A DNA stretch of 37,459 bases from NCBI GenBank assembly GCA_035557125.1, contig DATMEC010000256.1, positions 1 to 37,459 on the forward strand. The letters are read 5' to 3'. This document shows positions 3,231 through 21,466 of the stretch, one piece after another. Positions within the stretch are counted from its first letter, which is position 1; each line of letters opens with the position of its first letter. Source of the stretch: Steroidobacteraceae bacterium. Lineage in GTDB: Bacteria; Pseudomonadota; Gammaproteobacteria; Steroidobacterales; Steroidobacteraceae. The translations under genes and the position numbers were made by a program. Below the pieces are notes generated by a model. It was not told the DNA's origin and ran no database searches. It saw only the letters and a list, made by a program, of their open reading frames with translations.

Positions 3231-3252
3231 AGGGCGCGGGCCGTCGAATCAG
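3214..3252. terminator. Imperfect hairpin at the convergent SGNH / GH-A gene junction
   Basis: CTGATCGAC (3214..3222) pairs with GTCGaATCAG (3243..3252): 9 bp with a 1-nt bulge. An inner GCGC/GCGC stem lies at 3224..3227 and 3234..3237. Only 18 nt separate the two stop codons. There is no U-tract, so the call is weak. Confidence 0.25.
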
Positions 3253-4172
3253 GGTGAATCAGGCGCCAGCAGTTTCCTGAATTCGCGGTAGGCCAGTTTC
3301 TTCCCGAATCCGCCTTCAGGCCCGTACGTCAGGCCCCAGCCACTGTCCTTGTCGGGCGGCGCAGGATAGTGCTCGTCGTTGAGCTGGTAGTTGAAGATCA
3401 CTTGGATGGCGGGATCGGCCCCCAGGATGCCGCGCTCCGGGTCGTAGTATTCCTCGACGTACCTGCGCTGTGCTTCCTCGCCGCCTTCCTGGTCGGCCGT
3501 GGTCCAGCCGGTTTCCGTGATCCAGATCGGCTTGCGGCCGGCGACGAGGCGCTTCACGGCCTCGAGTTGCTGGCTCCGGTGGAAGACGTAGTAGTGCACG
3601 GACACGGCGTCGACGTATTCGAGCAGCCCGGATTCGATGAGCTTCCTCAAGTACGCGACGCCTTCTTCGGTTGCGCCGACGGCCGGGGCGACGATTCGCG
3701 CGTCTGGTTGGGCGGACCTGATGATGGAGTGCGCGTCGCGGAGCATTTTCATGTAGTCACCCGGCGCAATCGGGCCGCCCCACCAGCTCATCTCCGGCTC
3801 GTTCGCGATTTCCCATGCGGCGACGCCGGGCACGCCATGGACCTCCTTCCGGACGAGGGCCGGCCATCCGGCGGTATCAGCGGAATACCAGGGCAGGAGC
3901 GCGAGCACCCGGATCCCCTTGCGCGCCATGTCGGCGACGAAGGGGAAGTCCTTCGCCGGGTCCTCGTAGTCGCCGCGGATCCAGAAGGGCCCCGCGGCGC
4001 GCAGGTCGTCGAGGACCTTCGCGGCCTCCGGCGTGTATTCGTCGCCGTAGGCGCCGTGGTGGAAACAGACGCCGAGCTCGACGCGCTCGCGCGCGGCCGC
4101 CGTCGACAGGTGGCACAGGGCCAGCGCGATGAGAGCTACGTGGCGCCGTCGAATTCGCGGGCCCGGAATCAT
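3249..4172 (-). CDS. Secreted clan GH-A (beta/alpha)8 glycoside hydrolase, family unassigned
   Basis: C-terminal 307 codons of ORF 3249..5450, starting at ATG 4172 (MIPGPRIRRRHVALIALALCHLSTAAA signal peptide). WEIANEPE (acid/base NEP motif) and IWITETGW (nucleophile Glu) are typical of GH5/GH39-like clan A enzymes. ATGA overlap with the upstream gene. Confidence 0.7.
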   Translation of the reverse strand: MIPGPRIRRRHVALIALALCHLSTAAARERVELGVCFHHGAYGDEYTPEAAKVLDDLRAAGPFWIRGDYEDPAKDFPFVADMARKGIRVLALLPWYSADTAGWPALVRKEVHGVPGVAAWEIANEPEMSWWGGPIAPGDYMKMLRDAHSIIRSAQPDARIVAPAVGATEEGVAYLRKLIESGLLEYVDAVSVHYYVFHRSQQLEAVKRLVAGRKPIWITETGWTTADQEGGEEAQRRYVEEYYDPERGILGADPAIQVIFNYQLNDEHYPAPPDKDSGWGLTYGPEGGFGKKLAYREFRKLLAPDSP

Positions 4173-5380
4173 ACGATTCGCTGCGCGGCCGGCAGATGCC
4201 GCGGAGACAGGCGGGCCAACAGCGCCGGGGCGCCCGGAGGGCGCAGCTCCGGGTGGTCCGCGAGAAAGCCGCGCTGCGCGCTCGCCGCCGTGTGCGACGC
4301 ATCGCCGGGCGCCCAGCCCGGCGGCTTCACGAGATAGGCGAGCTTGATGCGCCAGCCGCGCGCACTGCGCAGGTCGCGCGCGAGCAGCAGGAACTCGCCG
4401 AAGTAAAAGTCCACGAAGCTGGTGACGTTGATGTCGCGCGTGATGCCGTATTCGATCTTCACCTCGTCGCGCAGGGGCTGGAGCGTGCCGAACATCCAGT
4501 CCCAGAACGGCAGCAGCGAGCAGAAGTTCCTGTCCATGTAGAGCGGGTTCTTCGCGTGATGCACGCGATGGTAGGAGGGCGTGATGATGAAGAAGCGCGC
4601 CGGGCCGAAGCGGCCCGTGCGGAACGAGCGCTCGCCCGCGTGGATGAAGGTCCCCCAGGTGACCTCGAAGGCCATGAGCACGACCAGCATGGCGGGCTCG
4701 ACGCCTAGCAGCATCAGGATCGGTACCTGCACTAGTGCGCTGTAGTAGCCCTCCGCGAAGAAGTGCACCCAGGCCACCGTCATGTTCAGGTTCTGGGGCG
4801 CGTGGTGCGGTGAGTGCAGGCACCACAGCAGGCGCACCTTGTGCGCGCTGTAATGCCAGGTCCACATGGACAAATCCCATATCAGCAGGGCATAGAGCCA
4901 GCCGTACCAGGTGTAACCGACATGAAACAGCGCAGACTGCTGGAAGTACGGCAACAGCAGCCAGAATACGTCGATCACGATCAGCCGCGGCAACAGGCCG
5001 AGCAGCAGACCTGCGAAAAAGGTGGGCTGATATTCGAGCGCCGTCGCCCGGAACAGTCGCGCCGCCATGCCCGGGCTGTGCCCCTGGGCGCGCTCCTTGC
5101 CGGCCTGCACGATGAAGAAGCGCGCGAGCTCCCACAAAGTCAGCAGCGAAATCAGCAGCCCGACCACCGCCAGCACGCTGTCGTGGTAATCGCCGTCGTT
5201 GAAGGGCTTGAGCAAGTCGGAGACAAATCCCTCGCCGCCGGCGGTTTTTTGCGCATAGTGCACGAGGCCGACCGCGAGGCCCCAGGTCGTGTAGACGAAC
5301 ACGGCAGCGAACAGCAACGCTTCGAGGTGCCGCCAGATCGGCGGGGTATTGCGCCAGGCCGGAATCCCAAGTGGTGTCAT
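4169..5380 (-). CDS. Integral-membrane fatty-acid hydroxylase / sterol desaturase superfamily di-iron oxygenase
   Basis: Part of ORF 4169..5512, starting at ATG 5380 (MTPLGIPAWRN...). Several hydrophobic helices. Three His boxes: HYSAH, HSPHH and HRVHH. ATGA overlaps at both ends (5377..5380 and 4169..4172). Confidence 0.8.
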   Translation of the reverse strand: MTPLGIPAWRNTPPIWRHLEALLFAAVFVYTTWGLAVGLVHYAQKTAGGEGFVSDLLKPFNDGDYHDSVLAVVGLLISLLTLWELARFFIVQAGKERAQGHSPGMAARLFRATALEYQPTFFAGLLLGLLPRLIVIDVFWLLLPYFQQSALFHVGYTWYGWLYALLIWDLSMWTWHYSAHKVRLLWCLHSPHHAPQNLNMTVAWVHFFAEGYYSALVQVPILMLLGVEPAMLVVLMAFEVTWGTFIHAGERSFRTGRFGPARFFIITPSYHRVHHAKNPLYMDRNFCSLLPFWDWMFGTLQPLRDEVKIEYGITRDINVTSFVDFYFGEFLLLARDLRSARGWRIKLAYLVKPPGWAPGDASHTAASAQRGFLADHPELRPPGAPALLARLSPRHLPAAQRIV

Positions 5381-8300
5381 GGGATGCGCTCGAATTCGAC
5401 GGCGTCGATGTAGACCGCGCCCGGCTCGTCGGAGGCCTGGCCGAAAACAAGGGTCAACCGGGCCTCGATCGCGCCGACCGGCACTACAGCTTCCAGTTCG
5501 TAGTCGTGCCATGAATTGGTAGGTGTCGCCGCGTCGGCAATCGCCCGCTCTTGCACGCCGAGCATTGCCGGGCCGCCGAAATAGTCGGCCCAGTGGTTGT
5601 AGAACTCAATTTTCATTGATGCTCGGTCATTCGGATCGGTCAGTTTCTCCTGTGAACGCACGAGCGCCGCGAGCCTTGCACGGACCCGCTCGCCGCTGGC
5701 GACGCTGATGCTTTGGCTCGTGCCGGAATAGTTGCCACCGCCGATCCCCTGACCGGAGATCTTCAACGCGTGAGTGCCATCGCGCACCGCCTCGCGATGC
5801 ACGAGCACATTCGGTTTGCCGTCGACGATATTGCCGAAGATGTGCCAGCCGGCCGGCGAGCCACCGTTCTCGTCGAATCCACCGTTTCGAAAAGTCCGGC
5901 TGCCAGGTTCGTCGGCGAGCTCGTAGACGCGGACCCAATCGACGAGCAAGCGCTGCGGCCACACCGTCGTCGCGTCCGGTGGCGGCAGGAAGTCGCCGCC
6001 GACCGCCGTATCGATGGCGAGCCGCATCGGCGCGGTGAAACTCGGCAGAAGGTATCCCACCTCGTCGTTGTAGTACGTCGCGTGATGCATGTCGTCGACG
6101 TAGAACCGGAGCTGGTTGTCGACCCATTCGCAGGCGAAGGTGTGAAATCCTTCGTCATACGAAACGAGCTGGCCGTCGATCCCCGTCTGCTGCGCGGTTC
6201 CAAACGACTCGTGTGAATCCGGGTTTTGCGTGCCCCAGCGAACGCTGCTCGAAGTGATCGTCGGCTGGTCGCCGCGATTCTCCATGATGCCGATCTCAAC
6301 CCCGGCCGGCCACGGCCCATCGGGCAGCAATCGGATGGCGGGCCACACGCCGCTGCCGCCAGGCAGCCTGGCCCGGACTTCCCACCGCCCGAGCCGTTGT
6401 GCCATTCGACTGGCGACCTTGCCGGAGCGATACGGCAGGCCGCGCGACGGCCTGTTCTCGGACAAAAGTTCCAGCTTGCCGTCCTTGACGCGGACTTGTC
6501 CCGGCAGAGAGTCCTGCAGCGAATCGTTCGTCGGCCGACTGTCGTCGATCAGCTCCCATTTGTCCGGGTCGAGCGAGTCGAAGTCCTCACTCCACACCAA
6601 CCGCCACTTGGGCGGCGGTTCGGGAATCAGCGTCAATCTGACGAGCGCGCCTCCCGCTGCGGCGAGGGGGAGGGTGAGCTCGTCGACTGGCGTCACTTCG
6701 CGCGATTCGAGCTTGAAGCCCTGTTGCGTGGCGAGATCGTCCCGGTAGGTCTCCGCCTGAAACATTCCCGCCGGCAGGAATGAGAGCGGTACCCGTACAT
6801 CTCTAGCGTGCCGATCCGTCATCGCACCGACCCACCAATCGTTGCCGCTGCGGCGAGCGATCACCACTTCCTCGCCCACCCGGGCAGCCAGCGCTACCGT
6901 GTCGTCCCAAGTGGAAGGTATAGCGGCCATGAGCCGTGTGAGCGGATGCCGGCGATAGGCCGAGGGATAGTCGGCCATCATCGGCAAGTGATTCTGCAGC
7001 ACGACGTACGAGGCGAGCATCCGGGCGGGCGTGCCGATCACCAGCGGTTCGGCGACCCTTGGCTTGAACCGGTCGAGCGGCACGCCGCGGAGCGAGCCCT
7101 GGTGGTAGTCGAGCGGGCCGGCGAGCATTCGCGTGAGCGGCACGGTGACGTCGTGCTCCGGCGTCACGCCGACTTCGTCCCACTTGCCATGCTCCAGGTT
7201 CAGCACAGCCTCGCTGTTTAGCAGGTTCGGAAAGGTCCGCTCGAGGCCGGTCGGCGCCGCGACGCCGTGGAACGTCACGGTCAGGTAATTGTCGGCCGCG
7301 AGCTGCAGCAGCTCGCGCTGGAATCCGACCATCTCCTGGTCGTCGCGGTCCATAAAGTCGATCATCACGCCCTCGATGCCCCAGGCGCGATAAAGCGGAA
7401 ATGCACGGGCCATGTGTCGTTTCGCCGCCTCCCAGTGCATCCACAGCCGAAGCCGCACGCCCTTCTGCCGCGCATAGGCGATGACTTCCTGTAGATCGAG
7501 TCCGTCGATTCCTTGGGTGATGTCGGCGCCTTCGTACGGCACGATAGGCCCGCCATACCAGGCCAGGCCGTTGACGCCGTCGAGCGTGTGATAGGGGATG
7601 CCGTACTCTGCGCAGAAGTCGATGTAGTACCTGGCCGTTTCGGTGTTGAGACCCATCTTGAACGGCACGCCCGTTTCAAAGAAATCGTTCCACCACGGGA
7701 ACGTCGTCTTGCCCGGCCTGATCCACGAAGTGTCGGCAATCGCGCTCGGCGCGTTGAGCTTGAGTACGGTGTCCGATTCGACCAATTGCCGCGCCTCCTG
7801 ACCAACCAGGATCAGCCGCCAGGGCGACTCGTGCGGCAGGGTGGCGCGGACGGCAATCTTCGGCTTGTCCGGACGGGGCGAGAGCCGGCTGACCAATGTG
7901 TTGCCGGAGCCCGTGCCTCGCGCGAGATACATGCCGGCGTAGTCGGTGAGGTTCGCCTCGAGGACGACGGCCCAACCGACGCCCGACAGTTCCACCAGGA
8001 GCGGCAACCCCAGCAGCCAGTCGGCTGGAATCTCGTCGACGCCTCGCCGCTCGTAGCGGCCTTCGTGCGACGTGGTGAAGCCCGCGAGCGGCAGCGCCGT
8101 TGTGACCGCGCCTCTCGGAAAGGCAAATTCCGTCAGCTCGTCGGCCAGTTCCAGATCCGACCAACCCGGCTGTTTGGGAAACCGGTACCGCAGCGCGACG
8201 CCGTCGTCATACGCGCGAACCACGAGCTGCCATTCAAACAGCTTCGCTCCGCGCTCGCGCAGCGTAATCGTGGCCTGGGATGCGCGATCTACCACGTGCC

Positions 8301-8628
8301 TGCGCTTGCCGGGATATTGCTCGAACGAGTCGTCAATCTCGATCGAGTCAGTGCCAACGACCACGCTATTGCGACCGAGCTCCATTCCCTCATTCAGGCG
8401 AACGCCCAGGTTCGATGCGTCGACGACCATTCGATCCGACAGGGAAACCCGGTACTGGACCTGGGTCGCCGCTCCGGACGCCGCACTCGTGAAGAGTTCG
8501 AACTCTAGGCGCCCACTTGGAGAGCGGACGACCACCGGATTGCTCTGTGCCGCTTCGCCCGCGCCGACTGCTCCGCACAGCAATACGCAAAGTCGGGCTA
8601 GGCGGGCAAGGAATGTCGTCATTGACAC
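5377..8628 (-). CDS. Secreted three-module enzyme: GH97 alpha-glucosidase-like + GH16 beta-glucanase-like + C-terminal CBM-like domain
   Basis: ORF 5377..8628 (GTG 8628; alternative ATG 8622). Signal peptide MTTFLARLARLCVLLCGAVGAGEAAQ. GH97 signature GIEGVMIDFMDRDDQEMV. GH16 block GVWPAIRLLPDGPWPAGVEIGIMENRG starts after about residue 670. The last ~175 aa (FRNGGFDENGGSPAGWHIFGN...) resemble a CBM4/9/22-type sugar-binding jelly roll. Confidence 0.8.
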   Translation of the reverse strand: MSMTTFLARLARLCVLLCGAVGAGEAAQSNPVVVRSPSGRLEFELFTSAASGAATQVQYRVSLSDRMVVDASNLGVRLNEGMELGRNSVVVGTDSIEIDDSFEQYPGKRRHVVDRASQATITLRERGAKLFEWQLVVRAYDDGVALRYRFPKQPGWSDLELADELTEFAFPRGAVTTALPLAGFTTSHEGRYERRGVDEIPADWLLGLPLLVELSGVGWAVVLEANLTDYAGMYLARGTGSGNTLVSRLSPRPDKPKIAVRATLPHESPWRLILVGQEARQLVESDTVLKLNAPSAIADTSWIRPGKTTFPWWNDFFETGVPFKMGLNTETARYYIDFCAEYGIPYHTLDGVNGLAWYGGPIVPYEGADITQGIDGLDLQEVIAYARQKGVRLRLWMHWEAAKRHMARAFPLYRAWGIEGVMIDFMDRDDQEMVGFQRELLQLAADNYLTVTFHGVAAPTGLERTFPNLLNSEAVLNLEHGKWDEVGVTPEHDVTVPLTRMLAGPLDYHQGSLRGVPLDRFKPRVAEPLVIGTPARMLASYVVLQNHLPMMADYPSAYRRHPLTRLMAAIPSTWDDTVALAARVGEEVVIARRSGNDWWVGAMTDRHARDVRVPLSFLPAGMFQAETYRDDLATQQGFKLESREVTPVDELTLPLAAAGGALVRLTLIPEPPPKWRLVWSEDFDSLDPDKWELIDDSRPTNDSLQDSLPGQVRVKDGKLELLSENRPSRGLPYRSGKVASRMAQRLGRWEVRARLPGGSGVWPAIRLLPDGPWPAGVEIGIMENRGDQPTITSSSVRWGTQNPDSHESFGTAQQTGIDGQLVSYDEGFHTFACEWVDNQLRFYVDDMHHATYYNDEVGYLLPSFTAPMRLAIDTAVGGDFLPPPDATTVWPQRLLVDWVRVYELADEPGSRTFRNGGFDENGGSPAGWHIFGNIVDGKPNVLVHREAVRDGTHALKISGQGIGGGNYSGTSQSISVASGERVRARLAALVRSQEKLTDPNDRASMKIEFYNHWADYFGGPAMLGVQERAIADAATPTNSWHDYELEAVVPVGAIEARLTLVFGQASDEPGAVYIDAVEFERIP
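6280..6297 (-). other. GH16 catalytic motif variant E-I-G-I-M-E (canonical E-I-D-I-M-E)
   Basis: The reverse complement of 6280..6297 reads GAG ATC GGC ATC ATG GAG. The middle Asp of the ExDxxE motif is replaced by Gly (GGC). Confidence 0.85.
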
Positions 8629-8638
8629 GGTTGCGCCG

Positions 8639-11140
8639 TCAGCGCCAGCGCACCACGACTTCAGCCGCGTCCTCGAATTCGAGCGTCGCTTGTGGAGTCA
8701 TCGGCTCCATCTGGCGCAGCTGTTCGAGTTTCTGCTTTTCCCAGTAGACGTCGCTCAGGGCCTCGAGTGGGTCCAGCATGCGTACGACCTCCGATTGCAC
8801 GTCCGTCGCCGCTCCGTTGACCGTCGCCCCCTGCGCCGTGTCGAATCCGTGCAGGATCAGCTTGATCTTCCGGAACCGCCCGGTAAAGCTCCCTTCGGGG
8901 CGCGAGAAGCGGACTTGCTTCGTCGCTGGGTCGAACGTGATCAGCCGCTTGTGAAACCGCCCCTTGCGGTAGTCAAGAGTTTCGCCGTCATCGTCGTAGT
9001 AGGCGAACTCGCTCCGCTCGGCGCCATTGAAGACGTGGACGTAAAGCAGCGGCCCCGGATCGTCTCGTGTCGATTGCACCTTTCCCTGCATCGGAATGAT
9101 TGCCGACGCCTTTGCGAAAATCGGGATCCGGTGGCCTGCATAGTCCGCTGTGTGGATGCGGCCGCCGTCAAGCCGCTCGTCCGTGAACAGGTCATACCAT
9201 TGTCCTGCGGGCAGGTACGTCGACTTCCTCTGCTCGCGGCTCGTCATGGGATTCACCAGGAGCCCGGGACCGAACAGGAACTCGTACTGATAGTCCGGGT
9301 TGTAGACGATGGCGTCGAAAGGCGAATCCATGGCGAGGCTGCGGCTCACCGGCATGCCGGTTTGGGACGATTCGAAAAAGGTCGAGTAGAGATATGGCAT
9401 CAGCTCGTACCGGAACCCGATGTAAGCCTTCGAAATCGCCTCGACTTCCTCGCCGTAAGCCCAGGGCTCGTTGGCCGCCGTGTACTGCCCGCGATGGTTG
9501 CGCAGGTACGGGGCGAAGACGCCGACCTCGATCCAGCGACGGAACAGGTCCTTGTTGCCGTCGCCGATATAGCCGCCGAGGTCGGGACCGGTGAACGGCA
9601 CGCCGGACAATCCCATCTGGTTGATGAGCAGCGCGCCGAGCAGGATGTGCTCGTCCTTCGCCTGGTTGTCGCCGCTCCACACCGCGGCGTAGCGCTGGAT
9701 TCCCGCAAACCCCGAGCGGCTGAGCACGAAGGGTCGCCGGTTCCCGCCGTATTGCTCGGCCGACTCGAACGCGGCGCGCGCCATCAGCATGCCGTAGTAG
9801 TTCTGCGCCTCGAGCGCCGAGGCCTCCTGGCCGTCGAAGTCGAACACCACGTTGTCCGGCATGGCTTGCCCGTCGATCGCGGGCTCGTTCATGTCGTTCC
9901 AGAGACCGTGGATCCCGAGGTCCTGGTATAGCTTCATGTTGTCGACCCACCAGCGGCGCCCGCGCGGGTCGGAGAAGTCGACGAAATGATTGGTGTTGGG
10001 CGCGATGTCCGCGATCCAGAGTTCGCCGTCCGCGTAGCGCAGGAAGACGTCTTCCTTAAGACCGCTCTTGTACTGATCGTACGTGTCGTCGATCGCGATC
10101 CCGGGGTTGACCGAGGCGGTCAGCTCGATGTCCATGTCGCGCAACGTATCGGCGAGGCGCCGCATGTCGGGGAAACGTTCTTTATTGATGCGAAATGGCT
10201 GGTATCGGTGCAGGTAGTCCGCGTCGAGGACGATGCCGTCGAGAGGTATGCCCTTGGCCCGGAACGTGTTGGCGATGAACATCACCTGGGCTTCCGGATA
10301 GTAGCTGCACCGCGACTGCTGGTAGCCGAGGCTCCAGCGCGGCGGCAGGGGCATCCGGCCGGTGAGGCCGGTGTAGTGCTCCAGTACTTTTCCGGGAGAA
10401 GCGTCGAACATGAAGAACTGGTCCAGTGCGCCGCCGTCGAAACTGAAGGAGGCGAAGCGGCGGTTGGAGGCGCCGAAATTGAAGACGGAACGATAGGAGT
10501 TGTTGAAGAAGAGGCCGTAGACCTTTCCGTGATGCAGTCCCATGAAGAAGGGAATGCTCACGTACATGGGAATCTTGGGATCGTCGTACTGGTAGTTGTC
10601 CGTGTTCTTGAGCGTGATCACCGACCCGCGCCGGTCAAGGTTCCCGAGCGCCTCGCCCATGCCGATGAAGCGCTCTGCCTCCTGCAGCCGCTTGTAGATG
10701 GTCAGCTTGCGGCCGATCGTCGTGATTCCGAGCTCCCTGCCGCGCAGGTCCTCGTTGATGACGGCGCCGCCTGCATCCTTGAAAGTGAAGCGCAAGTCCG
10801 GCCGCAGTTCGACCTCGGTCGTGACGCTCGACGTTTTCACTACGACGATAGGATCAGCGGCGCTTACGCTGAACTGCGAAAAGTCTGGTACCTCGTCCGT
10901 CTTGAGGGCGTAGCCGGCGTGCCGCTCCACTCCCTCGGGCAGGACGCGCACGCGGATGACGTGGGGAGAGTAGACATCTACAGAGAAATCGGCCGTCGCG
11001 GTGCGCCCGGCGATGCCGTGCGCCGTTTTCTCGTACGACAGCACAGGGCCGAGATTGTCGGCGTGCGCAATGGGCGCCATTGCGCCCAGCATCAATAGGC
11101 CAGCACCGGCCGTCCGGACCACGGAACGAGTCGCCATCAT
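8639..11140 (-). CDS. Secreted GH31 alpha-glucosidase family enzyme
   Basis: C-terminal 833 codons of ORF 8639..11389, starting at ATG 11140 (MMATRSVVRTAGAGLLMLGAMAPIAHA signal peptide). GH31 signatures GLWNDMNEP (nucleophile Asp), WSGDN and GPDLGGY. ATGA overlap with the cytochrome b561 stop codon. Confidence 0.9.
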   Translation of the reverse strand: MMATRSVVRTAGAGLLMLGAMAPIAHADNLGPVLSYEKTAHGIAGRTATADFSVDVYSPHVIRVRVLPEGVERHAGYALKTDEVPDFSQFSVSAADPIVVVKTSSVTTEVELRPDLRFTFKDAGGAVINEDLRGRELGITTIGRKLTIYKRLQEAERFIGMGEALGNLDRRGSVITLKNTDNYQYDDPKIPMYVSIPFFMGLHHGKVYGLFFNNSYRSVFNFGASNRRFASFSFDGGALDQFFMFDASPGKVLEHYTGLTGRMPLPPRWSLGYQQSRCSYYPEAQVMFIANTFRAKGIPLDGIVLDADYLHRYQPFRINKERFPDMRRLADTLRDMDIELTASVNPGIAIDDTYDQYKSGLKEDVFLRYADGELWIADIAPNTNHFVDFSDPRGRRWWVDNMKLYQDLGIHGLWNDMNEPAIDGQAMPDNVVFDFDGQEASALEAQNYYGMLMARAAFESAEQYGGNRRPFVLSRSGFAGIQRYAAVWSGDNQAKDEHILLGALLINQMGLSGVPFTGPDLGGYIGDGNKDLFRRWIEVGVFAPYLRNHRGQYTAANEPWAYGEEVEAISKAYIGFRYELMPYLYSTFFESSQTGMPVSRSLAMDSPFDAIVYNPDYQYEFLFGPGLLVNPMTSREQRKSTYLPAGQWYDLFTDERLDGGRIHTADYAGHRIPIFAKASAIIPMQGKVQSTRDDPGPLLYVHVFNGAERSEFAYYDDDGETLDYRKGRFHKRLITFDPATKQVRFSRPEGSFTGRFRKIKLILHGFDTAQGATVNGAATDVQSEVVRMLDPLEALSDVYWEKQKLEQLRQMEPMTPQATLEFEDAAEVVVRWR

Positions 11141-11712
11141 TTCCGTTCGACGCCGCGGAACGTCATGCGCTGGAACGTCGGCACGCGGTCGAACCACTGG
11201 TGCTTGGAAGCGCCGATGAGGTGCGCCGCGAGCAGGAAATACAGCAGGTAGCTCAACCACTCGTGCACGATGTGGGCCAGTTCGTCGAGGGCCTTCTTCG
11301 GCTCCGGCGCCATGTTGGCCACCCAGGCGATCCGAGGCATCTCGAACAGTCCGAAGACGTCGATGGGGACATCGGCAGCGTATTCCCACGCCGAATCATA
11401 GATCCATCCGGAAATCGGCATCGCCAGTATCAAGAAATACAGGGCGGCATGGCCCGCGCGCGCGGCAACCGCCTGCCAGCGCGGAATCGCCGGGCTGAAT
11501 GGCGGCGGCCGATGAGCGATGCGCCACAGGAGCCGCATCAGCGCAAGACCGAGGACCGTGATGCCGATGGTCTTGTGTGCATTGGTGACTGATTGGGTCC
11601 ACGAGTAATCCGGCCAGATCTTGAAGATCCATGCCAGAGTCACGTTGCTGAGGACCATCGCGCCGATGACCCAGTGCAGGACGATCGCGGTGCGCGTATA
11701 GCGATCGTTCAC
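11137..11712 (-). CDS. Cytochrome b561 family membrane protein (CybB-like di-haem b-type cytochrome)
   Basis: ORF 11137..11712 with a GTG start. Pattern YTRTAIVLHW...AHKTIG...RLLWRIAHRPPP...GHAALYFLILAMPISG...HEWLSY...AAHLIGASKH...FQRM matches the conserved His and helix layout of E. coli CybB-type proteins. Confidence 0.8.
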   Translation of the reverse strand: MNDRYTRTAIVLHWVIGAMVLSNVTLAWIFKIWPDYSWTQSVTNAHKTIGITVLGLALMRLLWRIAHRPPPFSPAIPRWQAVAARAGHAALYFLILAMPISGWIYDSAWEYAADVPIDVFGLFEMPRIAWVANMAPEPKKALDELAHIVHEWLSYLLYFLLAAHLIGASKHQWFDRVPTFQRMTFRGVERK

Positions 11713-12548
11713 CGTGGCAGATTCCGCGCCGTGGTGTCGCGCTCATCGGCGAGCCAAACGTCGCTTGCCTCGTCGCCGCTGAATCGCCGCTCCCCGTACT
11801 CGCGGATGCGGCTGCCCGGAACCTTGGTCAGCGGCGTGTAGCGAGGATGCTGGGAATCCTTGTACGGGTCGTTGCGCGCGGCGTTGTAGCTGCAGATCAT
11901 CGACCAGCGCGGGTTCATCGACTTGTTCTGGTCCGACCGATGCAGCGTGTTGCAATGGAAGAAGAGGACGTCGCCCGGTTCCATCTCGACGTGCACGAGC
12001 TCCTGCCGCTTCAGGACCTCCTTCACGCGCTCGATGTCGGCCCCGGCCTGCTCGCCGGTGAGGACGTGGTCGATGCGGCCCAGGTGATACGAGCCGCGCA
12101 CCACCTGCAGGCAGCCGTTCTCGCGCGTCGCGCGGTCGACCGCGATGAAGGCGCTTCCCATCCATGGATTGAGGACGCCGTTGTGGTACCAGTAGCCGTA
12201 GTCCTGATGCCAGGTCCACGCACCGCCGGTCAACGGGTCCTTCATGATCATCTTGGAGTGATAGTGGTAGACCTCGCCGCCCAGGAGCTTCTCCATCGAT
12301 CCGACGATGGACTCCGAGCGCGCGATCATGCCGTAGATCGTGTCGGTAGGATGGTTCCAGAGCGACAGTCGCACCGTGCCGCCTTCGCCATCCGCGCGCC
12401 CGAAAGAATGCTGGTCGAGCACGCGGTCTTCGCGCGCCGCGCGCGCGAGGAGATCCACCTCGACGGCGTCGAGCATGCCGCGTGCCAGCACGAAGCCGTC
12501 GGCGTTGAATGCGCCGACTTCCGCATCGCCGATCGGTCCGCTGGTCAT
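11709..12548 (-). CDS. PhyH (phytanoyl-CoA dioxygenase) family Fe(II)/2-oxoglutarate oxygenase, cytoplasmic
   Basis: C-terminal 279 codons of ORF 11709..13649, starting at ATG 12548 (MTSGPIGDAEVGAFNADGFVLARG). HxD triad context WTWHQDYGYW and distal His FFHCNTLHRSDQN. No signal peptide. 4-nt overlaps at both ends. Confidence 0.75.
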   Translation of the reverse strand: MTSGPIGDAEVGAFNADGFVLARGMLDAVEVDLLARAAREDRVLDQHSFGRADGEGGTVRLSLWNHPTDTIYGMIARSESIVGSMEKLLGGEVYHYHSKMIMKDPLTGGAWTWHQDYGYWYHNGVLNPWMGSAFIAVDRATRENGCLQVVRGSYHLGRIDHVLTGEQAGADIERVKEVLKRQELVHVEMEPGDVLFFHCNTLHRSDQNKSMNPRWSMICSYNAARNDPYKDSQHPRYTPLTKVPGSRIREYGERRFSGDEASDVWLADERDTTARNLPR

Positions 12549-13879
12549 TGGCTTCTCCTCGACGGCTCCAACCAGTGCTTTTCGATCTCCTCGAGCGTCC
12601 GGTTCCGGGTCTCCGGCACGAACCTCCAGGTGAACAGCGCCTGCGCCAGCGAGAACGCCGCCAGGATTGCGAACGTCGGCGCCTGGCCCAACTGATTCAA
12701 CGCCGCCGGAAACAACAGTACCACCACCGCGTTCGCCACCCACTGGGTCAGCACGGGCACTGTCATCGCCGTGCCACGCACGTGCGTCGGCAGGATTTCC
12801 GGCACCAGCGTCCAGAACACCGGCCCGATGCACGAGGCGAAAAAGGCGAGGTAGGCCAGGATCAGGACCAGGGCCAGCGGGCCTTCGAAATGCCCGAGCA
12901 GCACCGAAATCGTCAGCGCAGCGAGCGCGACGGCCATGCCCAATGATCCGACGATGTACAACGGGCGGCGACCGTAGCGATCGATCGTCCAGAAGGACAC
13001 CAGCGTGAACACAAAATTGGCGATGCCGACGACGAATGTAGACAGCAGCGCGGCGTCCAGATCCCAGCCCGCCGATTGGAAGATCATGGGCGCGTAGTCG
13101 ATGACTGTATTGATGCCGGAGAAATGGATCAGGATGGCGAGCCAGAAGCCGACGAATACGGCGCGGCGCACGCCCGGCTGGAACAGATCCCGCCAGGAGC
13201 GTCCGGTCGTGGTCGATACCTCGGCAGCCGCCGACGACACCTCGTCGGGCGAGTCTCCGATCCGACTCATGACGGCGCGTGCCTCGTCGCGGCGTCCCGC
13301 CATGAAGAGAAACCTCGGCGTCTCGGGAGCGCGCAGCAGCAGCGCGAAGAAAACCACGGAAGGGAACACGCCGGTGCCGAACATCCAGCGCCAGTTGTCC
13401 GGTCCGATGTCGTGCAGCAGGTAGTTGATGCAGTAGGAAACCAGAATGCCCGTGACGATGGACATCTGGTAGAGCGCGCCCAGCCTCCCGCGCACGGCCG
13501 CCGGCGCGACCTCGGCGATGTACATCGGCGAGACCAGTGACACCGCGCCGACGGCCAGGCCGCCGATGAATCGTGCGGCGAGGAAACTGGGGAAATCCCA
13601 GGCGAGGGCCGTTGCGACCGAGGTCAATGCGAAGAGCACGGCGATCCACAGCAACACGTACCGGCGGCCGTAGCGATCGCTCATTCGGCCGGTAACGGCG
13701 GCTCCGAGTGCACAGCCGAACAGCAGCGAACTGAACGCGACCCCGAGGCCGAAATCGCCGAGCTCGAAATGCCGGGCCAGGAACGGCCCCGCGCCGCTGA
13801 TGATCGCGACGTCGAACCCGAACAGCAGGCCGCCGGTCGCAGCGGTGCAGGCAAGGAACAGGACGTAGCGCAGGTTCAT
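12545..13879 (-). CDS. MFS sugar porter family transporter
   Basis: ORF 12545..13945 with the start set to ATG 13879 (MNLRYVLFLACTAATGGLLFGFD). Motifs GRMSDRYGRRYVL and PETRNRTLEEIEKHW. 12-TM-type hydrophobicity pattern. Confidence 0.85.
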   Translation of the reverse strand: MNLRYVLFLACTAATGGLLFGFDVAIISGAGPFLARHFELGDFGLGVAFSSLLFGCALGAAVTGRMSDRYGRRYVLLWIAVLFALTSVATALAWDFPSFLAARFIGGLAVGAVSLVSPMYIAEVAPAAVRGRLGALYQMSIVTGILVSYCINYLLHDIGPDNWRWMFGTGVFPSVVFFALLLRAPETPRFLFMAGRRDEARAVMSRIGDSPDEVSSAAAEVSTTTGRSWRDLFQPGVRRAVFVGFWLAILIHFSGINTVIDYAPMIFQSAGWDLDAALLSTFVVGIANFVFTLVSFWTIDRYGRRPLYIVGSLGMAVALAALTISVLLGHFEGPLALVLILAYLAFFASCIGPVFWTLVPEILPTHVRGTAMTVPVLTQWVANAVVVLLFPAALNQLGQAPTFAILAAFSLAQALFTWRFVPETRNRTLEEIEKHWLEPSRRSQ

Positions 13880-13881: not shown

Positions 13882-16089
13882 CTATTCCCTGGCGAGTATT
13901 TTCAACATCTCGCCAATCTCCGGATTCGACATGAACGCGCGCCACAGGAGCCCCGTGCGGTGGTTCTCGACCATCGCGACGATCGGCGCCTGGTTCAGGC
14001 CCATGTAATGTGCGGACAGCCAGCTCTGGGTCGGGTTGTAGTTGTCGCGCGGGCCGTAGATGCCCCAGAGCTCAGCGCCGAGCTCGCGGTAGAAGTGCTT
14101 GAACGCGGCCATCGACGCTTCGGGCGTGTACGGGAACGAGGCGAGCGCCCCGGTCAGCGTGATCGTGCCGTCGTCGTTCCACTGGTCCGGGGCCGGCGTC
14201 GTGTAACCGTTCCAGCCAAAGCTCGCCGTCAATCCCCAGGCGTTCGCCCCATAACCCTTGAAACCTTTGGGATTCGCGATGCAATAAGCCCGGTTGATCT
14301 CGGCGATGCGGCGGTTGTTGTCGAAGTACGAGTCCGTGTACCGGTCGCGCAGGGCACGCGGGTCGATGCCCATGAACATGTAGTGGATGAAAAAGAGAGG
14401 CCCGCCGCTGCTGACGCCGACGTCGAGCTTGATGCCGTAGTAGCTGTTGCCGTTGGCGTAGAGCCGGCCGTCGGGGCTGCCGGACCAGCCCTGCCGGTAG
14501 TCCTGCGCGCGCTTGTCCTGGCTCGCCCAGCCACTGTAGTACAGGCTCGCCGGCACCGGGTGCGTGGGCGAGGCGATCCCCAGCAGGTAGGTCAGCTGGG
14601 TCTCGTTGAACCCGATCAGCGGGTGCTGGATTCGGTATCCCCACTGCGGCGACCAGTGCCAGTAGAGGAACGGACTGTCGGCCGTCATGCGGAACCAGTC
14701 CCATTCCACCGCATGCCAGAGCGCTGTGATCCGCTCGCGCAGCGACTTCTCGCGCCGCGTGCCGCGGTCGAAGTATCCGCGCGCCGTCAGCAGCCCCTGG
14801 ATCATGTACGAGGTCTCGATGATGTCGCCGCCGTTGTCGTACATACCGAAGAGGGCCATCGTCCCGCCGGTGTCCTCGTTGTAGTAGTGCGACCAGGCGC
14901 CGTGATAGCGCGGCGCGCGCTCGAGGAAAGACACGAGCGTTTCGAGCCGCTCGAGGCCCTGGTCGCGCGTGATGAACCTGCGGTCGACGGCCGCGATCAG
15001 GGCGCTGAGGCCGAGCCCCGTCGCGCCCGTGGCCAGCACGCGGTCGTCACCCGGCAGGTTTTCGCGCGCCATACCGGTGCTAGCGCTCGACGCTTCCCAG
15101 TAGTAGCGGAAGGCCGCCTCCTGCAGCATGTCGAGTAGTTCGTCGTCCGTCATCTCGCGTGTTGCCGCCGTGACCGCGGCCGATGCACTTGACTGGCGCC
15201 CCTTCCAGTCCGCGGCTGCGACCTGGTAACGCGCCGTAACGCCCGACCGGCCGATGAAGTCGGCGTATCGGTTGACGCCCGGCCGTTGCGTGCCGACCGG
15301 CAGGAACGGCCCGCCGTCGATCGAGCGGGACACGACGTAGTACTCCGCGGCGCTTTCCACGGGCGCGCGCCATTGCACGTCGATATGGCGGTCATAACCC
15401 TTCGCCGACACGCCATCCGGCACCGGCAATGCCGTCGCGGCCGCGCCTGCCGCGGTTTCGTCGTCGATCCGGATGTCGTCGACGATCAAAACGTGCTTCT
15501 TTCCGTCCGCGCGCCGTTGGTGAAGAATGACGCTTTGCAGGCGCTCGGATCGAAACTGGTAAACGGACGCCGAGCGGAGCTTCGCGAACGGAATCCGGAC
15601 GGGTACCCATTCGCCGGCGGGAAGGTCGCCCGTGTAGTCCGCGAGCGGTTCCTCGACGGTGAAGCTGCCAGGCATCGTCGCCACCTGCAGGCCCCCGCGC
15701 GCATCGGACAGCGTCACGTTGGGCAGATCGGCCGCCGCGATGGGTTCCGGCGAATAGACCCAGAAAAAGAGTGTCCCTCCGGCAAAGTCCGGAAATCGAT
15801 TCGGGTAACTCACGAACTGAATTTGCGCATCCCAGCTGCCGCCGGGCACCGAGGTCCACTCGATACGCAAAGCGTTGGGTGCCGTGCGAAATACCGTGGA
15901 TTCCACCGGCAGGCGGTAGTGCATCGAGCGGAGCTGGCTCGGTTCCGTCTCCGCGGCGCTCGACTGGAAGTACTGCTGGAGCTGCTGGCTGTTGTCGAAG
16001 AAGACGTGGCGATAGTAGTCCGACTGCGCTGCAGCAGGATGGCCGGCGCACAGGCCGACGGCGAGGAAGCAGAGTAACGGGCGATTCAT
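13882..16089 (-). CDS. Secreted multi-domain (alpha/alpha)6 glucanase of the putative-glucoamylase/DUF3131 type, most likely a GH144-like endo-beta-1,2-glucanase, with N-terminal CBM-like and Fn3-like modules
   Basis: ORF 13882..16098. ATG 16089 is preferred because AAGGA lies 8 nt upstream. Signal peptide [22 protein letters not shown]. Catalytic region motifs [48 protein letters not shown] and [23 protein letters not shown] resemble proteins annotated as the glucoamylase family (GH144). The family assignment was made from memory only. Confidence 0.65.
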
Positions 16090-16125
16090 CTTGCGCATCC
16101 TTTCGCTTCTGGCAACAGGCCCATG

Positions 16126-18318
16126 TCAGCGGGCAACGCCGATCTCCTGCGCCAGCGGCAGGTTCCGCGACGAGGCACCGACGGCAACGCGATAACGTCC
16201 TGTCGGACGGTTCCAGCCGGCACTGCCCGAATCCCAGACGCGCAACGCATAGGGATCCGGAGAGATGCGCACGCGGCGCCGCTCGCCCGGCGCCAGCTCC
16301 ACGCGCGCCCAGCCGGCCAGTCGCTTCGAGGGTTCGTCGGACGACGGTGGGAACTCCAGGTACAACTGCGCGACCTCGATGCCCGCCCGGTCGCCCGTGT
16401 TGGCGAGGTCGAAGGCGACCGAGAGATCGGGATTCACGGCGAGGTTGGAGTACTCGAACGTCGTGAAGGACCGCCCGTAGCCGAACTCGTATGCCGGTGT
16501 CTTCTTCTGCGCGTCGTACCACCGATAGCCCACCGCCAGGCCTTCGCTCAATCGGATGACCGGCTGGCGCGACGGCGCGACGGCCGGTTTCGTCGGGTCC
16601 GCCAACGACTCGGCTGGATGAGGGCGTGGCAGGTCCGCCTCCGTGCGCGGGAAGCTGATGGGCAGCCGGCCGGACGGGTTGACACGGCCGAACAGGATGT
16701 TCGCGATCGCCTCCGCGCCGCGATTGCCGGGATACCAGGCTGCGAGTAGGGCGCCGACCTGCGGCGCCCACGGTGTCAGTACGGAACCTCCCGTCTGGAG
16801 GACGACGACAGTGCGCGGGTTGGCGGCCGCCACCTTCCGGATGAGGTCGTCCTGGCCAGCCGGCAGCGACAGGGTCAGAAGGTCCTTTCCTTCCTCGCGC
16901 GACTGCCACGCAAAGAGGATCGCCACATCGGCAGAGGCGGCGAGGGTGGCCGCGGCATCCGAGTTCTCGCCGGACGCGAACTCGACCTTCGCCGAGGGCG
17001 CCATCTTCGCGATCGCCTCCAGGGGAGACGAGTGATGCCAGCCGGTGCTCGCGAACATGGCGAGCTCGGCCGGCGTGCCGGGCGGCGTATCGTCCAGGGT
17101 GACGCCGCCGATCGCATCGACGCGCGACGACCCGCCGCCGGACAGGACGCCGATGTCGGCGCGACGGCCGATTACGGCGATCTTTTTCAGGTTCGCCGCT
17201 TGAAGCGGCAGCAGTCCGTCACGGTTTTCCAAGAGTACGATACCGCTTTCGGCAACGCGCTGCGCGACGGCAAGGCCCGCCGCGCTGTCGACAGGCTGCA
17301 CGGTTTCCGTACGGTCAAGCGCACCGATCGCGGCGAGGCTGCGCAGGATGCGACGCGCCATGTCGTCGATGCGCGCCCTGGAAACCTCGTTTTTCTCCAC
17401 GGCTGCCTTCAGCGCACTCGCGAAATAGCGCTCCTCGTAGAACTCCTGGTCGAGGCCCGCGTTAGCGGACTGCGCGGTGCTGTGCGTCGCCCCCCAGTCG
17501 GACATCACCCAGCCCTTGAAGCCCCACTCGGACTTCAGGATGTCGCTGAGGAGGTGCGAGTTCTCGCAGGCGTAAATGCCGTTAACCTTGTTGTAGGCGC
17601 ACATCGTGCTGCCGACGCCGGACTCCTTCACGACGATCTCGAAGGGCAGCAGGTCGACCTCGCGCAGCGACCGTTCATCGACGCTCATGTCGACCCAATG
17701 GCGATCCGTCTCCTGGGAGTTCGCCACGAGGTGCTTGACGGTCGAGACCACGCCCGTGGACTGGATTCCGCGCACCTGCGCCGTCGTCATGCGCCCCGCC
17801 AGGATCGGATCCTCGCCGAGATACTCGAAATTCCGCCCGTTCCAGGCGTCGCGCTCGACGTTTGCGCCGCCGGCGAGCAGCACGTTGAAGCCGCGGTCGC
17901 GCGCTTCGCGGCCCATGACTTGGCCGCTCTCGAACGCGAGATCCGCATCGAAGGTCGCGGCCAGCGCCTGCGACGACGGAAAGGCCGTGGCCCGGCCCTC
18001 CGGACCGCCCGCGATATTCCTCACCCCGAGCGGTCCGTCATTCAGCTGCAGCGCGGGAATTCCGACCCGCGGCATCGCCGCGATGAAGCCGGCCCCTTGG
18101 TGTGCGCCGTCAGGCGCCGGCTTTCCCGCGTAGGCGAACCCGAGCGACCCGTGGAACAGGTGGAGCTTCTCGTCGAGCGTCATGGCCCGGACGAGCGCGT
18201 CGGCGCGCTCGTCCGGGCTCAGCCCGCGGTCCCGCCAGGCCTCGGGCGGCTGCGCATTCAATGTGGACGCGCCGAGTGCGGCCAGCGCAAATCCGGCGCC
18301 CCGAATACTCCATGACAT
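16126..18318 (-). CDS. Periplasmic GH3 beta-glucosidase (divergent from the two BglX-like paralogs)
   Basis: ORF 16126..18318. Signal peptide MSWSIRGAGFALAALGASTLNAQ. Motifs MTLDEKLHLFHG, KHLVANSQE and GWVMSDWGA (nucleophile Asp), with a C-terminal Fn3-like domain. Confidence 0.9.
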   Translation of the reverse strand: MSWSIRGAGFALAALGASTLNAQPPEAWRDRGLSPDERADALVRAMTLDEKLHLFHGSLGFAYAGKPAPDGAHQGAGFIAAMPRVGIPALQLNDGPLGVRNIAGGPEGRATAFPSSQALAATFDADLAFESGQVMGREARDRGFNVLLAGGANVERDAWNGRNFEYLGEDPILAGRMTTAQVRGIQSTGVVSTVKHLVANSQETDRHWVDMSVDERSLREVDLLPFEIVVKESGVGSTMCAYNKVNGIYACENSHLLSDILKSEWGFKGWVMSDWGATHSTAQSANAGLDQEFYEERYFASALKAAVEKNEVSRARIDDMARRILRSLAAIGALDRTETVQPVDSAAGLAVAQRVAESGIVLLENRDGLLPLQAANLKKIAVIGRRADIGVLSGGGSSRVDAIGGVTLDDTPPGTPAELAMFASTGWHHSSPLEAIAKMAPSAKVEFASGENSDAAATLAASADVAILFAWQSREEGKDLLTLSLPAGQDDLIRKVAAANPRTVVVLQTGGSVLTPWAPQVGALLAAWYPGNRGAEAIANILFGRVNPSGRLPISFPRTEADLPRPHPAESLADPTKPAVAPSRQPVIRLSEGLAVGYRWYDAQKKTPAYEFGYGRSFTTFEYSNLAVNPDLSVAFDLANTGDRAGIEVAQLYLEFPPSSDEPSKRLAGWARVELAPGERRRVRISPDPYALRVWDSGSAGWNRPTGRYRVAVGASSRNLPLAQEIGVAR

Positions 18319-21300: not shown

Positions 21301-21466
21301 TGGCCGTAACCTCCGTGCCGGCGGGCGCCTTGCCGCGCAACGCGGAGTTGGCCGACTGCGCGGCGGCCTCTTGCGGCAGCACATTCGCCATCAGGATCGC
21401 GCCCACGAGAATCGCGAGTCGCCGGCTGCCCAGGGTCCCAGTCCTCATCGTCTTCCGAGTGTTCAT
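18335..21466 (-). CDS. TonB-dependent outer-membrane receptor with N-terminal carboxypeptidase-regulatory-like domain (Oar-like)
   Basis: ORF 18335..21559 with the start set to ATG 21466 (MNTRKTMRTGTLGSRRLAILVGAILMANV...AAAQ). The N-terminal segment GTEVTATNAETGF...GSYVLVGLPPGTYQV is followed by a plug and a long beta-barrel region. The protein ends with Phe (...SMNVMF). Confidence 0.9.
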   Translation of the reverse strand: MNTRKTMRTGTLGSRRLAILVGAILMANVLPQEAAAQSANSALRGKAPAGTEVTATNAETGFTRQVQVSSEGSYVLVGLPPGTYQVSAGPGTERTVTLSVASTSTLNFEGGEQVTALGEVQVSGGRLAEVKTSEVGGGVSLRQIESTPQITRNFLEFADAVPGMKFEVDARGNTQIRSGTLNTGTTNVYIDGVGQKNYVRPSGVTGQAGADSNQNTTGSPGNPFPQLAIAEYKVITSNYKAEYDQVSGAAITAVTKSGTNEFEAAAFMTYSDSDFRAKTPPELAAGTGKQGGDSKEYGFSLGGPIIKDRLHFFVTYEAKEFTTPNTILVPQIFDASGEVPDWASGLTPELRENYGPVANPFDEDLIFAKLDWQITGSDRLELSGKKRKERQQSGAAGVVAESAASTYINDDERLALRWEHLGDSYFNEAAVTYEDTRDTPSKAGDLPGQRFVALNTQGDGFDPILQIDGVDPRSYFFTTQSGYSVQDDITFTEFDWHGEHTLKTGVKFKDVELQVRDASTEALYDFWVSPDPANGGVEEDPFQVTFGAQADASINPTSTSKNRQYGIYFQDDWAVNDRLTLNLGIRYDYEETPTYTDYVTPQRFIDAINALDPNGCPVDVQDDPALCGYNFSGGYHGSQPGQTYRETLAIAGIDIDDYISNGSNRSDPSDQIAPRFGFSYDVNGDEAHVVFGGAARSYDRNTFSILQHETNKATLYVPTVQFWNDSDAVGNLCPSGTLNNAFCLPWDDAYLTPEGLASIAPGNFGEMHFINNNLDAPYSDQFTLGMRNLVGEWNTSAAIAYITSYDGVIASSGNRFGDGTWYWYDSFAYAESTALIPNAGGGALRLFDNAKATRTTQLLLSADRPYDAETGWSTSLAYTFSYAKERLEFNGDYQFDYASPYYSPYALSGEVPKHRLVAVGSYDVPWGITLGAKMVVETPKPLAGIYTFDEDVAPPNGLNYDFIKRSRHPQDTIGFFTLDLQATKTFEFGDRGAVQFRIDVLNATNRENMAFLFSADPDQPFYFKDGDLAGVPRTFKVSMNVMF

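Follow-up and report, generated by a model that had tools for sequence, protein, structure and literature searches.

Glycan-utilization loci have been mined chiefly for hydrolases, and few oxidative accessory enzymes are recognized in them: lytic polysaccharide monooxygenases, the porphyran P450 demethylase, and the dehydrogenases of the 3-keto pathway. We know of no 2-oxoglutarate (2OG) dioxygenase in primary sugar catabolism, and our literature searches found none. Among the described systems, the porphyran loci encode a cytochrome P450 6-O-methyl-galactose demethylase together with a ferredoxin and a ferredoxin reductase (PMC6292453); the 3-keto-glycoside (oxidation-elimination-hydration) pathway employs a Gfo/Idh/MocA dehydrogenase, a TIM-barrel lyase annotated as 'sugar phosphate isomerase', and DUF1080 proteins, and cytochromes may, according to its authors, re-oxidize the dehydrogenase in vivo (bioRxiv 10.1101/2024.03.25.586180). 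Escherichia coli CybB is a superoxide:quinone oxidoreductase, and the established role of its cytochrome b561 family is electron exchange with the quinone pool. Here, we analyzed a 37,459-nt stretch of DNA from a Steroidobacteraceae bacterium (contig DATMEC010000256.1 of assembly GCA_035557125.1; this whole stretch is called the window), in which genes for a major facilitator superfamily (MFS) sugar porter, a PhyH-family Fe(II)/2OG dioxygenase, a cytochrome b561, and a glycoside hydrolase of family 31 (GH31) are chained on the minus strand. This cassette fits the already known theme of oxidative accessory functions in glycan-utilization loci. At roughly even odds (probability of about 0.5), the porter and PhyH would form a core that oxidizes an imported hexose-type sugar in the cytoplasm, with b561 as an accessory, quinone-linked conduit that faces the periplasm. 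Comparison with other genomes showed that b561 is a lineage-specific addition and that PhyH and b561, each found without the other, are not obligate partners.

Organization and conservation of the cassette

The four genes of the cassette, with positions given on the window, are as follows:

12545..13879, minus strand: sugar-porter-family MFS transporter, 444 amino acids (aa) from the ATG at 13879 (Sugar_tr, 379.7 bits)
11709..12548, minus strand: PhyH-family Fe(II)/2OG dioxygenase, 279 aa, predicted cytoplasmic (PF05721, 115.5 bits against a cut-off of 22)
11137..11712, minus strand: CybB-like di-heme cytochrome b561, 191 aa, four predicted transmembrane helices (PF01292, Ni_hydr_CYTB, 97.6 bits against a cut-off of 30.1)
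8639..11140, minus strand: predicted secreted GH31 of the alpha-glucosidase type, 833 aa (GH31, 330.4 bits, plus three accessory GH31 domains)

The original prediction, made from the sequence of the window, had these genes running head to tail with three 4-nt overlaps; reading of the minus strand confirmed this layout, and the identities were confirmed by Pfam. The MFS gene ends AGC CAA TGA and shares ATGA (12545-12548) with the PhyH start codon (ATG, 12548-12546); PhyH ends CCA CGG TGA and shares GTGA (11709-11712) with the start of b561 (GTG, 11712-11710); and b561 ends CGG AAA TGA and shares ATGA (11137-11140) with the start of GH31 (ATG, 11140-11138). From its GTG start, b561 aligns residue for residue with M1 of E. 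coli CybB, and on a public contig carrying an identical b561 an independent gene caller gives the same 4-nt overlaps on both sides. An alternative GTG start of the MFS gene lies at 13945. Further overlaps of 4 nt, of the ATGA type, were found in the window between (i) a GH97-GH16 fusion and an FA_hydroxylase gene (5377-5380); (ii) the latter and a Glyco_hydro_cc gene (4169-4172); (iii) a cupin and a ROK gene (22484-22487); and (iv) an ATP-binding cassette (ABC) permease gene and a second PhyH gene (27395-27398). Since such start/stop overlaps are the norm in the window, the chaining shows common operon membership only. Overlapping stops and starts suggest translational coupling but do not show that the cassette proteins are made stoichiometrically, as had been proposed, and they are common here. 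The element above chance is the gene order kept in other genomes, not the overlaps.

This order was examined from the b561 side in 22 ortholog loci, 4 of them from ENA/NCBI and 18 from JGI metagenomes. At 20 of the 22, the gene directly preceding b561 is PhyH, mostly with an MFS gene before the pair and GH31 after it, and the 4-nt PhyH/b561 overlap is kept in the gene calls of L088, L090, L091, and L163, with short gaps in other loci. The survey from the PhyH side found b561 adjacent in five loci, all gammaproteobacterial (L001, L005/L012, L008, L010, and L011). Adjacency of the two genes, a point on which the original prediction could have failed, is thus conserved. The b561 orthologs are 71-99% identical and Steroidobacterales-like, after which there is a gap to relatives of ≤41% identity. 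In about 45 loci of these distant relatives no PhyH, MFS, or glycosidase neighbors were detected; their contexts were heterogeneous (YceI, DsbB, Ldh_2, and others). A plasmid collection contained no b561 relative above 40% identity. By the best matches of its PhyH and b561, the organism of the window belongs in or near Steroidobacteraceae. Of the two exceptions among the 22 loci, L108 has a choline-kinase-like gene upstream of b561, and L089 (2490-8588) has a b561 ortholog (77% identical) directly after GH97-GH16 and GH144 genes, with no MFS, PhyH, or GH31. The L089 arrangement suggests that b561 tracks the glucan locus and not PhyH alone.

Absence of b561 was also common. It was not found in L009, L013, L014, or L015, nor in any of the 71 non-gammaproteobacterial PhyH loci with at least four called genes. 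In L009 the PhyH is 91% identical to that of the window and the order is MFS-PhyH-GH31, with a 52-nt gap and no b561. A neighbor-joining tree of PhyH placed the b561-linked copies in one clade, sister to L013-L015, with L009 nested inside, which implies that b561 was gained once and lost once (L009). The notion of PhyH and b561 as a unit therefore survives as conserved adjacency, but not as an obligate pairing, given the loci that have only one of the two. GH31 is not constant beside the cassette either: the best solved relatives of the window's enzyme are alpha-glucosidases, as had been predicted, but the gene is absent from L005/L012, so that an alpha-glucosidase is not a fixed member. In the b561-positive L005 (99-7888), which lacks GH31, MFS-PhyH-b561 adjoins genes for a GFA-domain protein, a Zn-dependent alcohol dehydrogenase, and an NAD-linked formate dehydrogenase operon. 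A role in formaldehyde handling or as an O-demethylase, considered from L005, was rejected as the pattern was not repeated in other loci and the similarly placed 333-aa gene of L013 encodes a glucokinase. Throughout, presence and absence were called by phmmer against all open reading frames (ORFs) and not from synteny strings, as the greedy ORF caller sometimes overlooked b561 or MFS genes beneath longer spurious high-GC ORFs. In the literature searched, no paper was found that mentions PhyH with b561 in an operon, and searches combining PhyH with polysaccharide-utilization or 3-keto-pathway terms returned no description of such a pairing.

The PhyH orthogroup was found to be large, very tight (66-94% identity), and spread over several phyla. 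With one genome per species, at least 581 loci were confirmed, and neighborhoods were drawn from the best 80 of these, in which PhyH is 66-92% identical; the best 120 PhyH clusters listed are all at least 71% identical. The 80 loci belong to Gammaproteobacteria, Acidobacteriota (many, including Bryobacteraceae and Acidobacteriaceae), Planctomycetota, Sphingomonas, and Anaerolineae. An MFS sugar porter is immediately upstream of PhyH in all nine gammaproteobacterial loci, and in L013 a glucokinase gene (333 aa) is divergent from MFS-PhyH. A sugar-type neighbor was detected at 54 of the 71 non-gammaproteobacterial loci, in which the neighbors counted included TIM barrels (29 and 24), Gfo/Idh/MocA proteins (28), LacI regulators (23), quinoproteins (23), and cytochromes c (14). 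The consensus in Acidobacteriota has LacI and Gfo/Idh/MocA genes on one strand, and on the other, in order, a TIM barrel, PhyH, a TIM-barrel-like protein (286 aa, no Pfam match), a cytochrome c (about 259 aa), and an 'acido-empty-quinoprotein' (quinoprotein group A, TIGR04528, 802 bits); examples are L024, L041, L048, L051, L055, L058, and L061, around 8000-14000 of each locus. Elsewhere, PhyH occurs near an OprB sugar porin (L034, Acidobacteriota), in the order GH43-GH3-PhyH (L084, Sphingomonas), beside GH28 and a fucosidase, or beside a GH63-like enzyme; obvious sugar genes are missing at several loci of Planctomycetota and Anaerolineae. Among RefSeq genomes with relatives at 45-49% identity, the PhyH of Spirosoma stands between GH36 and a sugar porter, with ThuA, a TIM barrel, and SusC/D nearby; that of Catenovulum, with its sugar porter, is beside sulfatases, GH16, and GH2; and in Runella, DUF1080, Gfo/Idh/MocA, and TIM-barrel genes precede PhyH, and those for a sugar isomerase and a c-type cytochrome of large size follow it. 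The pairing of a sugar porter with PhyH was hence seen in varied gene orders in Gammaproteobacteria, Acidobacteriota, Bacteroidota (Spirosoma), and Alteromonadales (Catenovulum). The predicted cytoplasmic oxidation of an imported sugar gains strength from this recurrence beside differing glycoside hydrolases.

In some Acidobacteriaceae, two copies of the PhyH ortholog were observed within about 5 kb (L059 10001-15671, L069 955-4229, and L071 10001-15671), with a LacI regulator and a 778-aa protein (weak GH31 match) between them.

The PhyH, b561, and MFS proteins

The PhyH protein covers 211 of the 213 positions of the PF05721 profile. Its residues H114-Q-D116, H203, and R214 are invariant in 16 orthologs and line up with residues of 7dt0 and GriE that bind the metal and 2OG; the enzyme would be of the hydroxylase and not the halogenase type because the triad aspartate is present. 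Judged from these residues, the Fe(II)/2OG catalytic center of PhyH appears intact. The protein begins MTSGPIGDAEVGAF, neither a hydrophobic nor a positively charged leader, in keeping with the predicted lack of a signal peptide. GH31, by comparison, begins MMATRSVVRTAGAGLLMLGAMAPIAHA followed by DN, a typical Sec leader cut between AHA and D, which bears out the signal peptide proposed for it. The C-terminal tail of PhyH is conserved (R255, F256, W265, and L266), and equally so in orthologs without b561. When the ortholog profile was compared with the PDB, the best matches were 7dt0/7dzz, GriE, and EctD, with SnoK, SnoN, and EvdO1/O2 lower (E-values 3e-26 to 2.8e-4). Searching of the literature by the PDB codes 7DT0, 7DZZ, 7E01, and 8H7T returned no relevant paper on these relatives. 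Assignment as the ectoine hydroxylase EctD/ThpD (TIGR02408) was rejected, as the score was 66.9 bits against a cut-off of 336.5; the name 'ectoine hydroxylase' carried by orthologs is an over-annotation.

The b561 protein aligns with CybB (5OC0) over residues 1-184, and its four helices match that structure, in agreement with the integral membrane protein that had been predicted. The heme ligands H13, H46, H150, and H164 are invariant and correspond to CybB H13, H45, H137, and H151. The residue roles in CybB are taken from PMC11869295, in which R30, R35, R38, R108, and K134 were shown by experiment to collect superoxide. In b561 the quinone-site residues (CybB R59, R63, H87, H158, T166, and R169) are conserved in 13 orthologs, with one T-to-I exception. 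Of the five antenna positions, only one is basic (R30 to K31); those of R35, R38, R108, and K134 are occupied by Y, T, S, and H or G. The periplasmic loops bear a net charge of −3 to −6, where those of CybB have +2, and the second of them, which is nearly invariant (YDSAWE.A..VPI..FGLFEMPRI.W), exceeds its CybB counterpart by about 11 residues. Against the NCBIfam CybB equivalog NF008566, b561 scored 51.3 bits, below the cut-off of 170. Membership in the CybB-type superoxide:quinone oxidoreductase subtype was rejected on the basis of the antenna residues and the equivalog score. Nonetheless, these features indicate a predicted role in transmembrane electron exchange with the quinone pool, because the quinone site and the two-heme wire are intact; and a periplasmic partner other than superoxide, because the periplasmic face is remodeled and acidic and has lost the antenna. 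The CybB-type shuttle between the quinone pool and the periplasmic face that had been assigned to b561 thus stands in its hemes and quinone site but not in its superoxide antenna.

The MFS protein belongs to the sugar porter family (TIGR00879, 362.4 bits against a cut-off of 237.8). Its scores were below the cut-offs of the XylE and GlcP equivalog models, so that no sugar specificity was assigned from the models.

The glucan operon and a second PhyH gene

The cassette is contained in a 12-gene array of about 20 kb, all on the minus strand, that runs from about 23428 to 3249 in the order cupin, ROK, Oar-like TonB-dependent receptor, GH3, GH144, MFS, PhyH, b561, GH31, GH97-GH16, FA_hydroxylase, and Glyco_hydro_cc. 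The genes other than those of the cassette are as follows:

22484..23428, minus strand: bicupin protein (Pfam Cupin_2), with a 4-nt overlap with the ROK gene; probably the first gene of the array, divergent from the GntR regulator gene at 23559
21531..22487, minus strand: ROK-family sugar kinase of the glucokinase type (Pfam ROK, 112.8 bits)
18335..21559, minus strand: Oar-like TonB-dependent outer-membrane receptor (Pfam OMP_b-brl_4, TonB_dep_Rec_b-barrel, CarboxypepD_reg); its true start is probably slightly downstream of 21559
16126..18318, minus strand: GH3 beta-glucosidase (Pfam GH3 N-terminal and C-terminal domains, Fn3-like)
13882..16098, minus strand: GH144-type beta-1,2-glucanase with N-terminal regions resembling a carbohydrate-binding module and Fn3 (PF10091, 219 bits)
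5377..8628, minus strand: GH97-GH16 fusion, 1083 aa (Pfam GH97_N, GH97, GH97_C, GH16)
4169..5380, minus strand: membrane di-iron oxygenase of the FA_hydroxylase family, ATG at 5380 (PF04116, 89.8 bits)
3249..4172, minus strand: Glyco_hydro_cc (GH128-like) glycosidase, the last gene of the array, start at 4172 (PF11790)

From the receptor to Glyco_hydro_cc, consecutive genes are separated by ≤27 nt or overlap by 4 nt, a packing that suggests co-transcription. A consensus scan for promoters and terminators over 3000-22800 gave no signal above shuffled expectation, a result that counts neither for nor against a single transcript. A TonB-dependent receptor, secreted glycoside hydrolases, an MFS transporter, and a ROK kinase are present on one strand with minimal gaps, as expected of a TonB-receptor-linked carbohydrate locus. 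The match of the GH144 protein to BDI_3064 (5z06) is full-length (E-value 3.5e-208), and the endo-beta-1,2-glucanase 5gzh was matched as well. BDI_3064 is a GH144 enzyme that degrades beta-1,2-glucan. With these matches and with GH31 nearest to alpha-glucosidases, the array would appear to be a receptor-linked glucan-utilization operon with activities on beta-1,2- and alpha-glucans, and probably on beta-1,3-glucan.

Several features of the array were noted in passing. The GH97-GH16 protein joins a complete GH97 to a GH16 domain and about 200 extra C-terminal residues, and the fusion also occurs in L088 and L089. The FA_hydroxylase protein (4169-5380) weakly matches the ornithine-lipid hydroxylase OlsE, and such a lipid-type enzyme is a puzzling member of a glucan operon; in L088, too, GH97-GH16 is followed by a gene of the family, and in L008 by a 399-aa ORF. 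Three related operons of Steroidobacterales (L088 1896-3497, L090 1971-3572, and L091 2033-3631) encode a TPR and sulfotransferase protein of about 533 aa between GH3 and GH144; the gene is absent from the window, and a sulfotransferase is odd in a catabolic glucan locus.

A second PhyH gene is located at 27395-28168 on the plus strand, its product 24% identical to the first. It belongs to an operon spanning 23559-32744 and is preceded by genes for a GntR regulator, a solute-binding protein, and two permeases, and its first 4 nt are shared with the end of the ABC sugar permease 2 gene. Downstream are genes for a Gfo/Idh/MocA-like protein (28170-29270), a MalK ATPase (29286-30386), and a GH3 (30399-32744). 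With this operon, the window contains two independent associations of PhyH with a sugar transporter. Directly after the GH3 of this ABC operon is a plus-strand gene for a PAD_porph-family protein of the agmatine/peptidyl-arginine deiminase type (32766-33845, 424 bits).

Function, alternatives, and relation to known systems

In the reading of porter and PhyH as the core, periplasmic glycosidases would release hexose-type sugars, and the proton-coupled porter would import them. PhyH would then hydroxylate a C-H bond of the imported sugar or sugar analog in the cytoplasm, an oxidation that could make the sugar catabolizable or supply a keto-sugar route. The b561 protein may have been recruited once in the lineage as a di-heme transmembrane wire linked to the quinone pool; it would exchange electrons with a periplasmic partner other than superoxide and be co-expressed with PhyH without being required by it. 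The recurrence of the porter-PhyH pair beside differing glycosidases, kinases, porins, and oxidoreductases across phyla suggests that PhyH may act on a hexose-type substrate imported by the porter. We infer the sugar as PhyH substrate, and likewise the direction of electron flow through b561 and its partner. A link of b561 to periplasmic sugar oxidation would be an attractive possibility, because c-type cytochromes are similarly placed in the PhyH clusters of other phyla.

Five points weigh against this reading: (i) the operon encodes no periplasmic redox enzyme that could serve as partner of b561; (ii) the near-constant slot of b561 right after PhyH, often with a 4-nt overlap, is compatible with a more direct functional link as well; (iii) the nearest solved relatives of PhyH (GriE and EctD, about 30% identity) act on amino acids or ectoine; (iv) the glucans targeted should give plain glucose, for which no hydroxylation is needed; and (v) the PhyH structure predicted by AlphaFold2 from the alignment of 16 orthologs had a mean pLDDT of 55, too poor for a fold search or for inspection of the pocket.

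The more direct link would be a redox couple in which b561 docks PhyH on the cytoplasmic side and quinol electrons re-reduce Fe(III) left by uncoupled turnover or partly replace 2OG, making the two proteins one membrane-associated oxygenase system. The fixed position of PhyH upstream of b561, with the 4-nt overlap kept at many loci, would be accounted for, as would the strong divergence of the b561 clade from all other b561 proteins, which is expected from recruitment to a new job, and the conserved PhyH tail could mediate the interaction. However, that tail is conserved to the same degree where b561 is lacking, more than 70 PhyH ortholog loci (L009 included) do without b561, L089 has b561 and no PhyH, and the two-heme wire, intact quinone site, and invariant remodeled periplasmic loop point to a partner in the periplasm. 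With no precedent found in the searched literature, we consider such a couple unlikely. No more probable is that b561 is a stress-protection passenger with no role in sugar metabolism, that is, a scavenger of periplasmic superoxide or lipid peroxyl radicals of the CybB or LcoA type. This is what its characterized relatives do: CybB, whose Pfam family, fold, hemes, and quinone site it shares, and LcoA, which is reported to work with a lipocalin (PMC9113575). The dispensability of b561 at the locus (L009) also agrees with a passenger. The loss of four of five antenna residues does not, as an acidic periplasmic face should repel superoxide; moreover, no YceI or lipocalin gene was detected near b561 in the ortholog loci examined, and a gene without a role there would not be expected to keep the same slot in 20 or more loci whose b561 proteins are 71-99% identical.

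We regard as quite improbable that PhyH hydroxylates an amino acid, osmolyte, or lipid-like molecule and that its position in a sugar operon is incidental or regulatory. The leucine hydroxylase GriE and EctD among its best solved relatives, the 'ectoine hydroxylase' label given to orthologs by some sources, and the Planctomycetota and Anaerolineae loci devoid of obvious sugar genes would agree with such a substrate, yet the ectoine hydroxylase model scored far below its cut-off, sugar-type neighbors are present at most non-gammaproteobacterial and all gammaproteobacterial loci with the porter pairing recurring in differing gene orders, and the PDB matches include enzymes of the PhyH fold whose targets are sugar C-H bonds (SnoK, SnoN, and EvdO1/O2). 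Finally, FA_hydroxylase enzymes require an external electron donor, and b561 could serve the operon's own member as cytochrome b5 serves the eukaryotic ones, both being membrane proteins of one operon in the window and L088, but this idea was rejected as most improbable, since the FA_hydroxylase gene follows GH97-GH16 and not b561 and is missing from most b561 loci with enough downstream sequence (L090, L091, L001, L005, and L089).

The reading of porter and PhyH as the core can be taken one step further, to a long shot that we offer as speculation: the PhyH orthogroup might be a hitherto unrecognized class of sugar C-H hydroxylases in primary catabolism, turning a hexose analog that is admitted by the glucose-type porter but refractory to kinase and isomerase into an ordinary hexose. 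Candidate reactions, equally speculative, would be the conversion of 1,5-anhydroglucitol to glucose or of 1,5-anhydromannitol to mannose by hydroxylation at C1, oxidative O-demethylation, or the repair of deoxy positions; and in Steroidobacterales such a hydroxylase might have acquired a dedicated membrane cytochrome. According to a 2025 review, the C1 hydroxylase for 1,5-anhydromannitol of soil rhizobia is 'still unidentified', and no aerobic pathway for 1,5-anhydroglucitol is known (PMC12441222).

The more valuable lead from this locus is the large, conserved, and uncharacterized sugar-associated PhyH orthogroup, rather than the pairing with b561. Once identified, its reaction would extend bacterial carbohydrate metabolism by one step, and an oxygen-tolerant enzyme for unusual sugars could be gained. 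The b561 clade shows the CybB scaffold in a natural variant, with the quinone site kept and the periplasmic reaction surface swapped, and it offers a handle on functions of bacterial b561 proteins besides superoxide oxidation.

Compared with the known systems, b561 resembles CybB in Pfam family, in the end-to-end alignment of a four-helix di-heme protein, and in its heme histidines and cytoplasmic-side quinone site; it differs in retaining one of five antenna residues, in its acidic periplasmic loops and longer second loop, and in its location in a glycan operon behind a dioxygenase. As in the porphyran P450 system, an O2-dependent enzyme that oxidizes C-H bonds is encoded with electron-transfer proteins in a polysaccharide locus, the P450 taking a monosaccharide after glycosidase action. 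However, the porphyran enzyme is a heme P450 with soluble, obligatory redox partners, whereas the enzyme here is a non-heme iron, 2OG-dependent protein whose electrons would be supplied by 2OG and whose membrane cytochrome is dispensable. The gene set of the 3-keto-glycoside pathway, with c-type cytochromes, surrounds the Acidobacteriota PhyH orthologs and the Runella homolog, and the second PhyH of the window abuts a Gfo/Idh/MocA gene; in contrast, the pathway as described has no 2OG dioxygenase, and the MFS-PhyH-b561 cassette lacks genes for Gfo/Idh/MocA, TIM-barrel lyase, and DUF1080 proteins. PhyH itself shares the fold, the HxD...H triad, and the 2OG-binding arginine with the leucine 5-hydroxylase GriE, EctD, 7dt0/7dzz, SnoK, SnoN, and EvdO1/O2. 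It differs from these solved enzymes in several respects: identity is at most about 30%, its orthologs form a tight clade of their own and carry a conserved C-terminal extension of 35 residues, and its genetic surroundings are those of primary catabolism, whereas SnoK, SnoN, and EvdO1/O2, which act on sugars, work in antibiotic biosynthesis.

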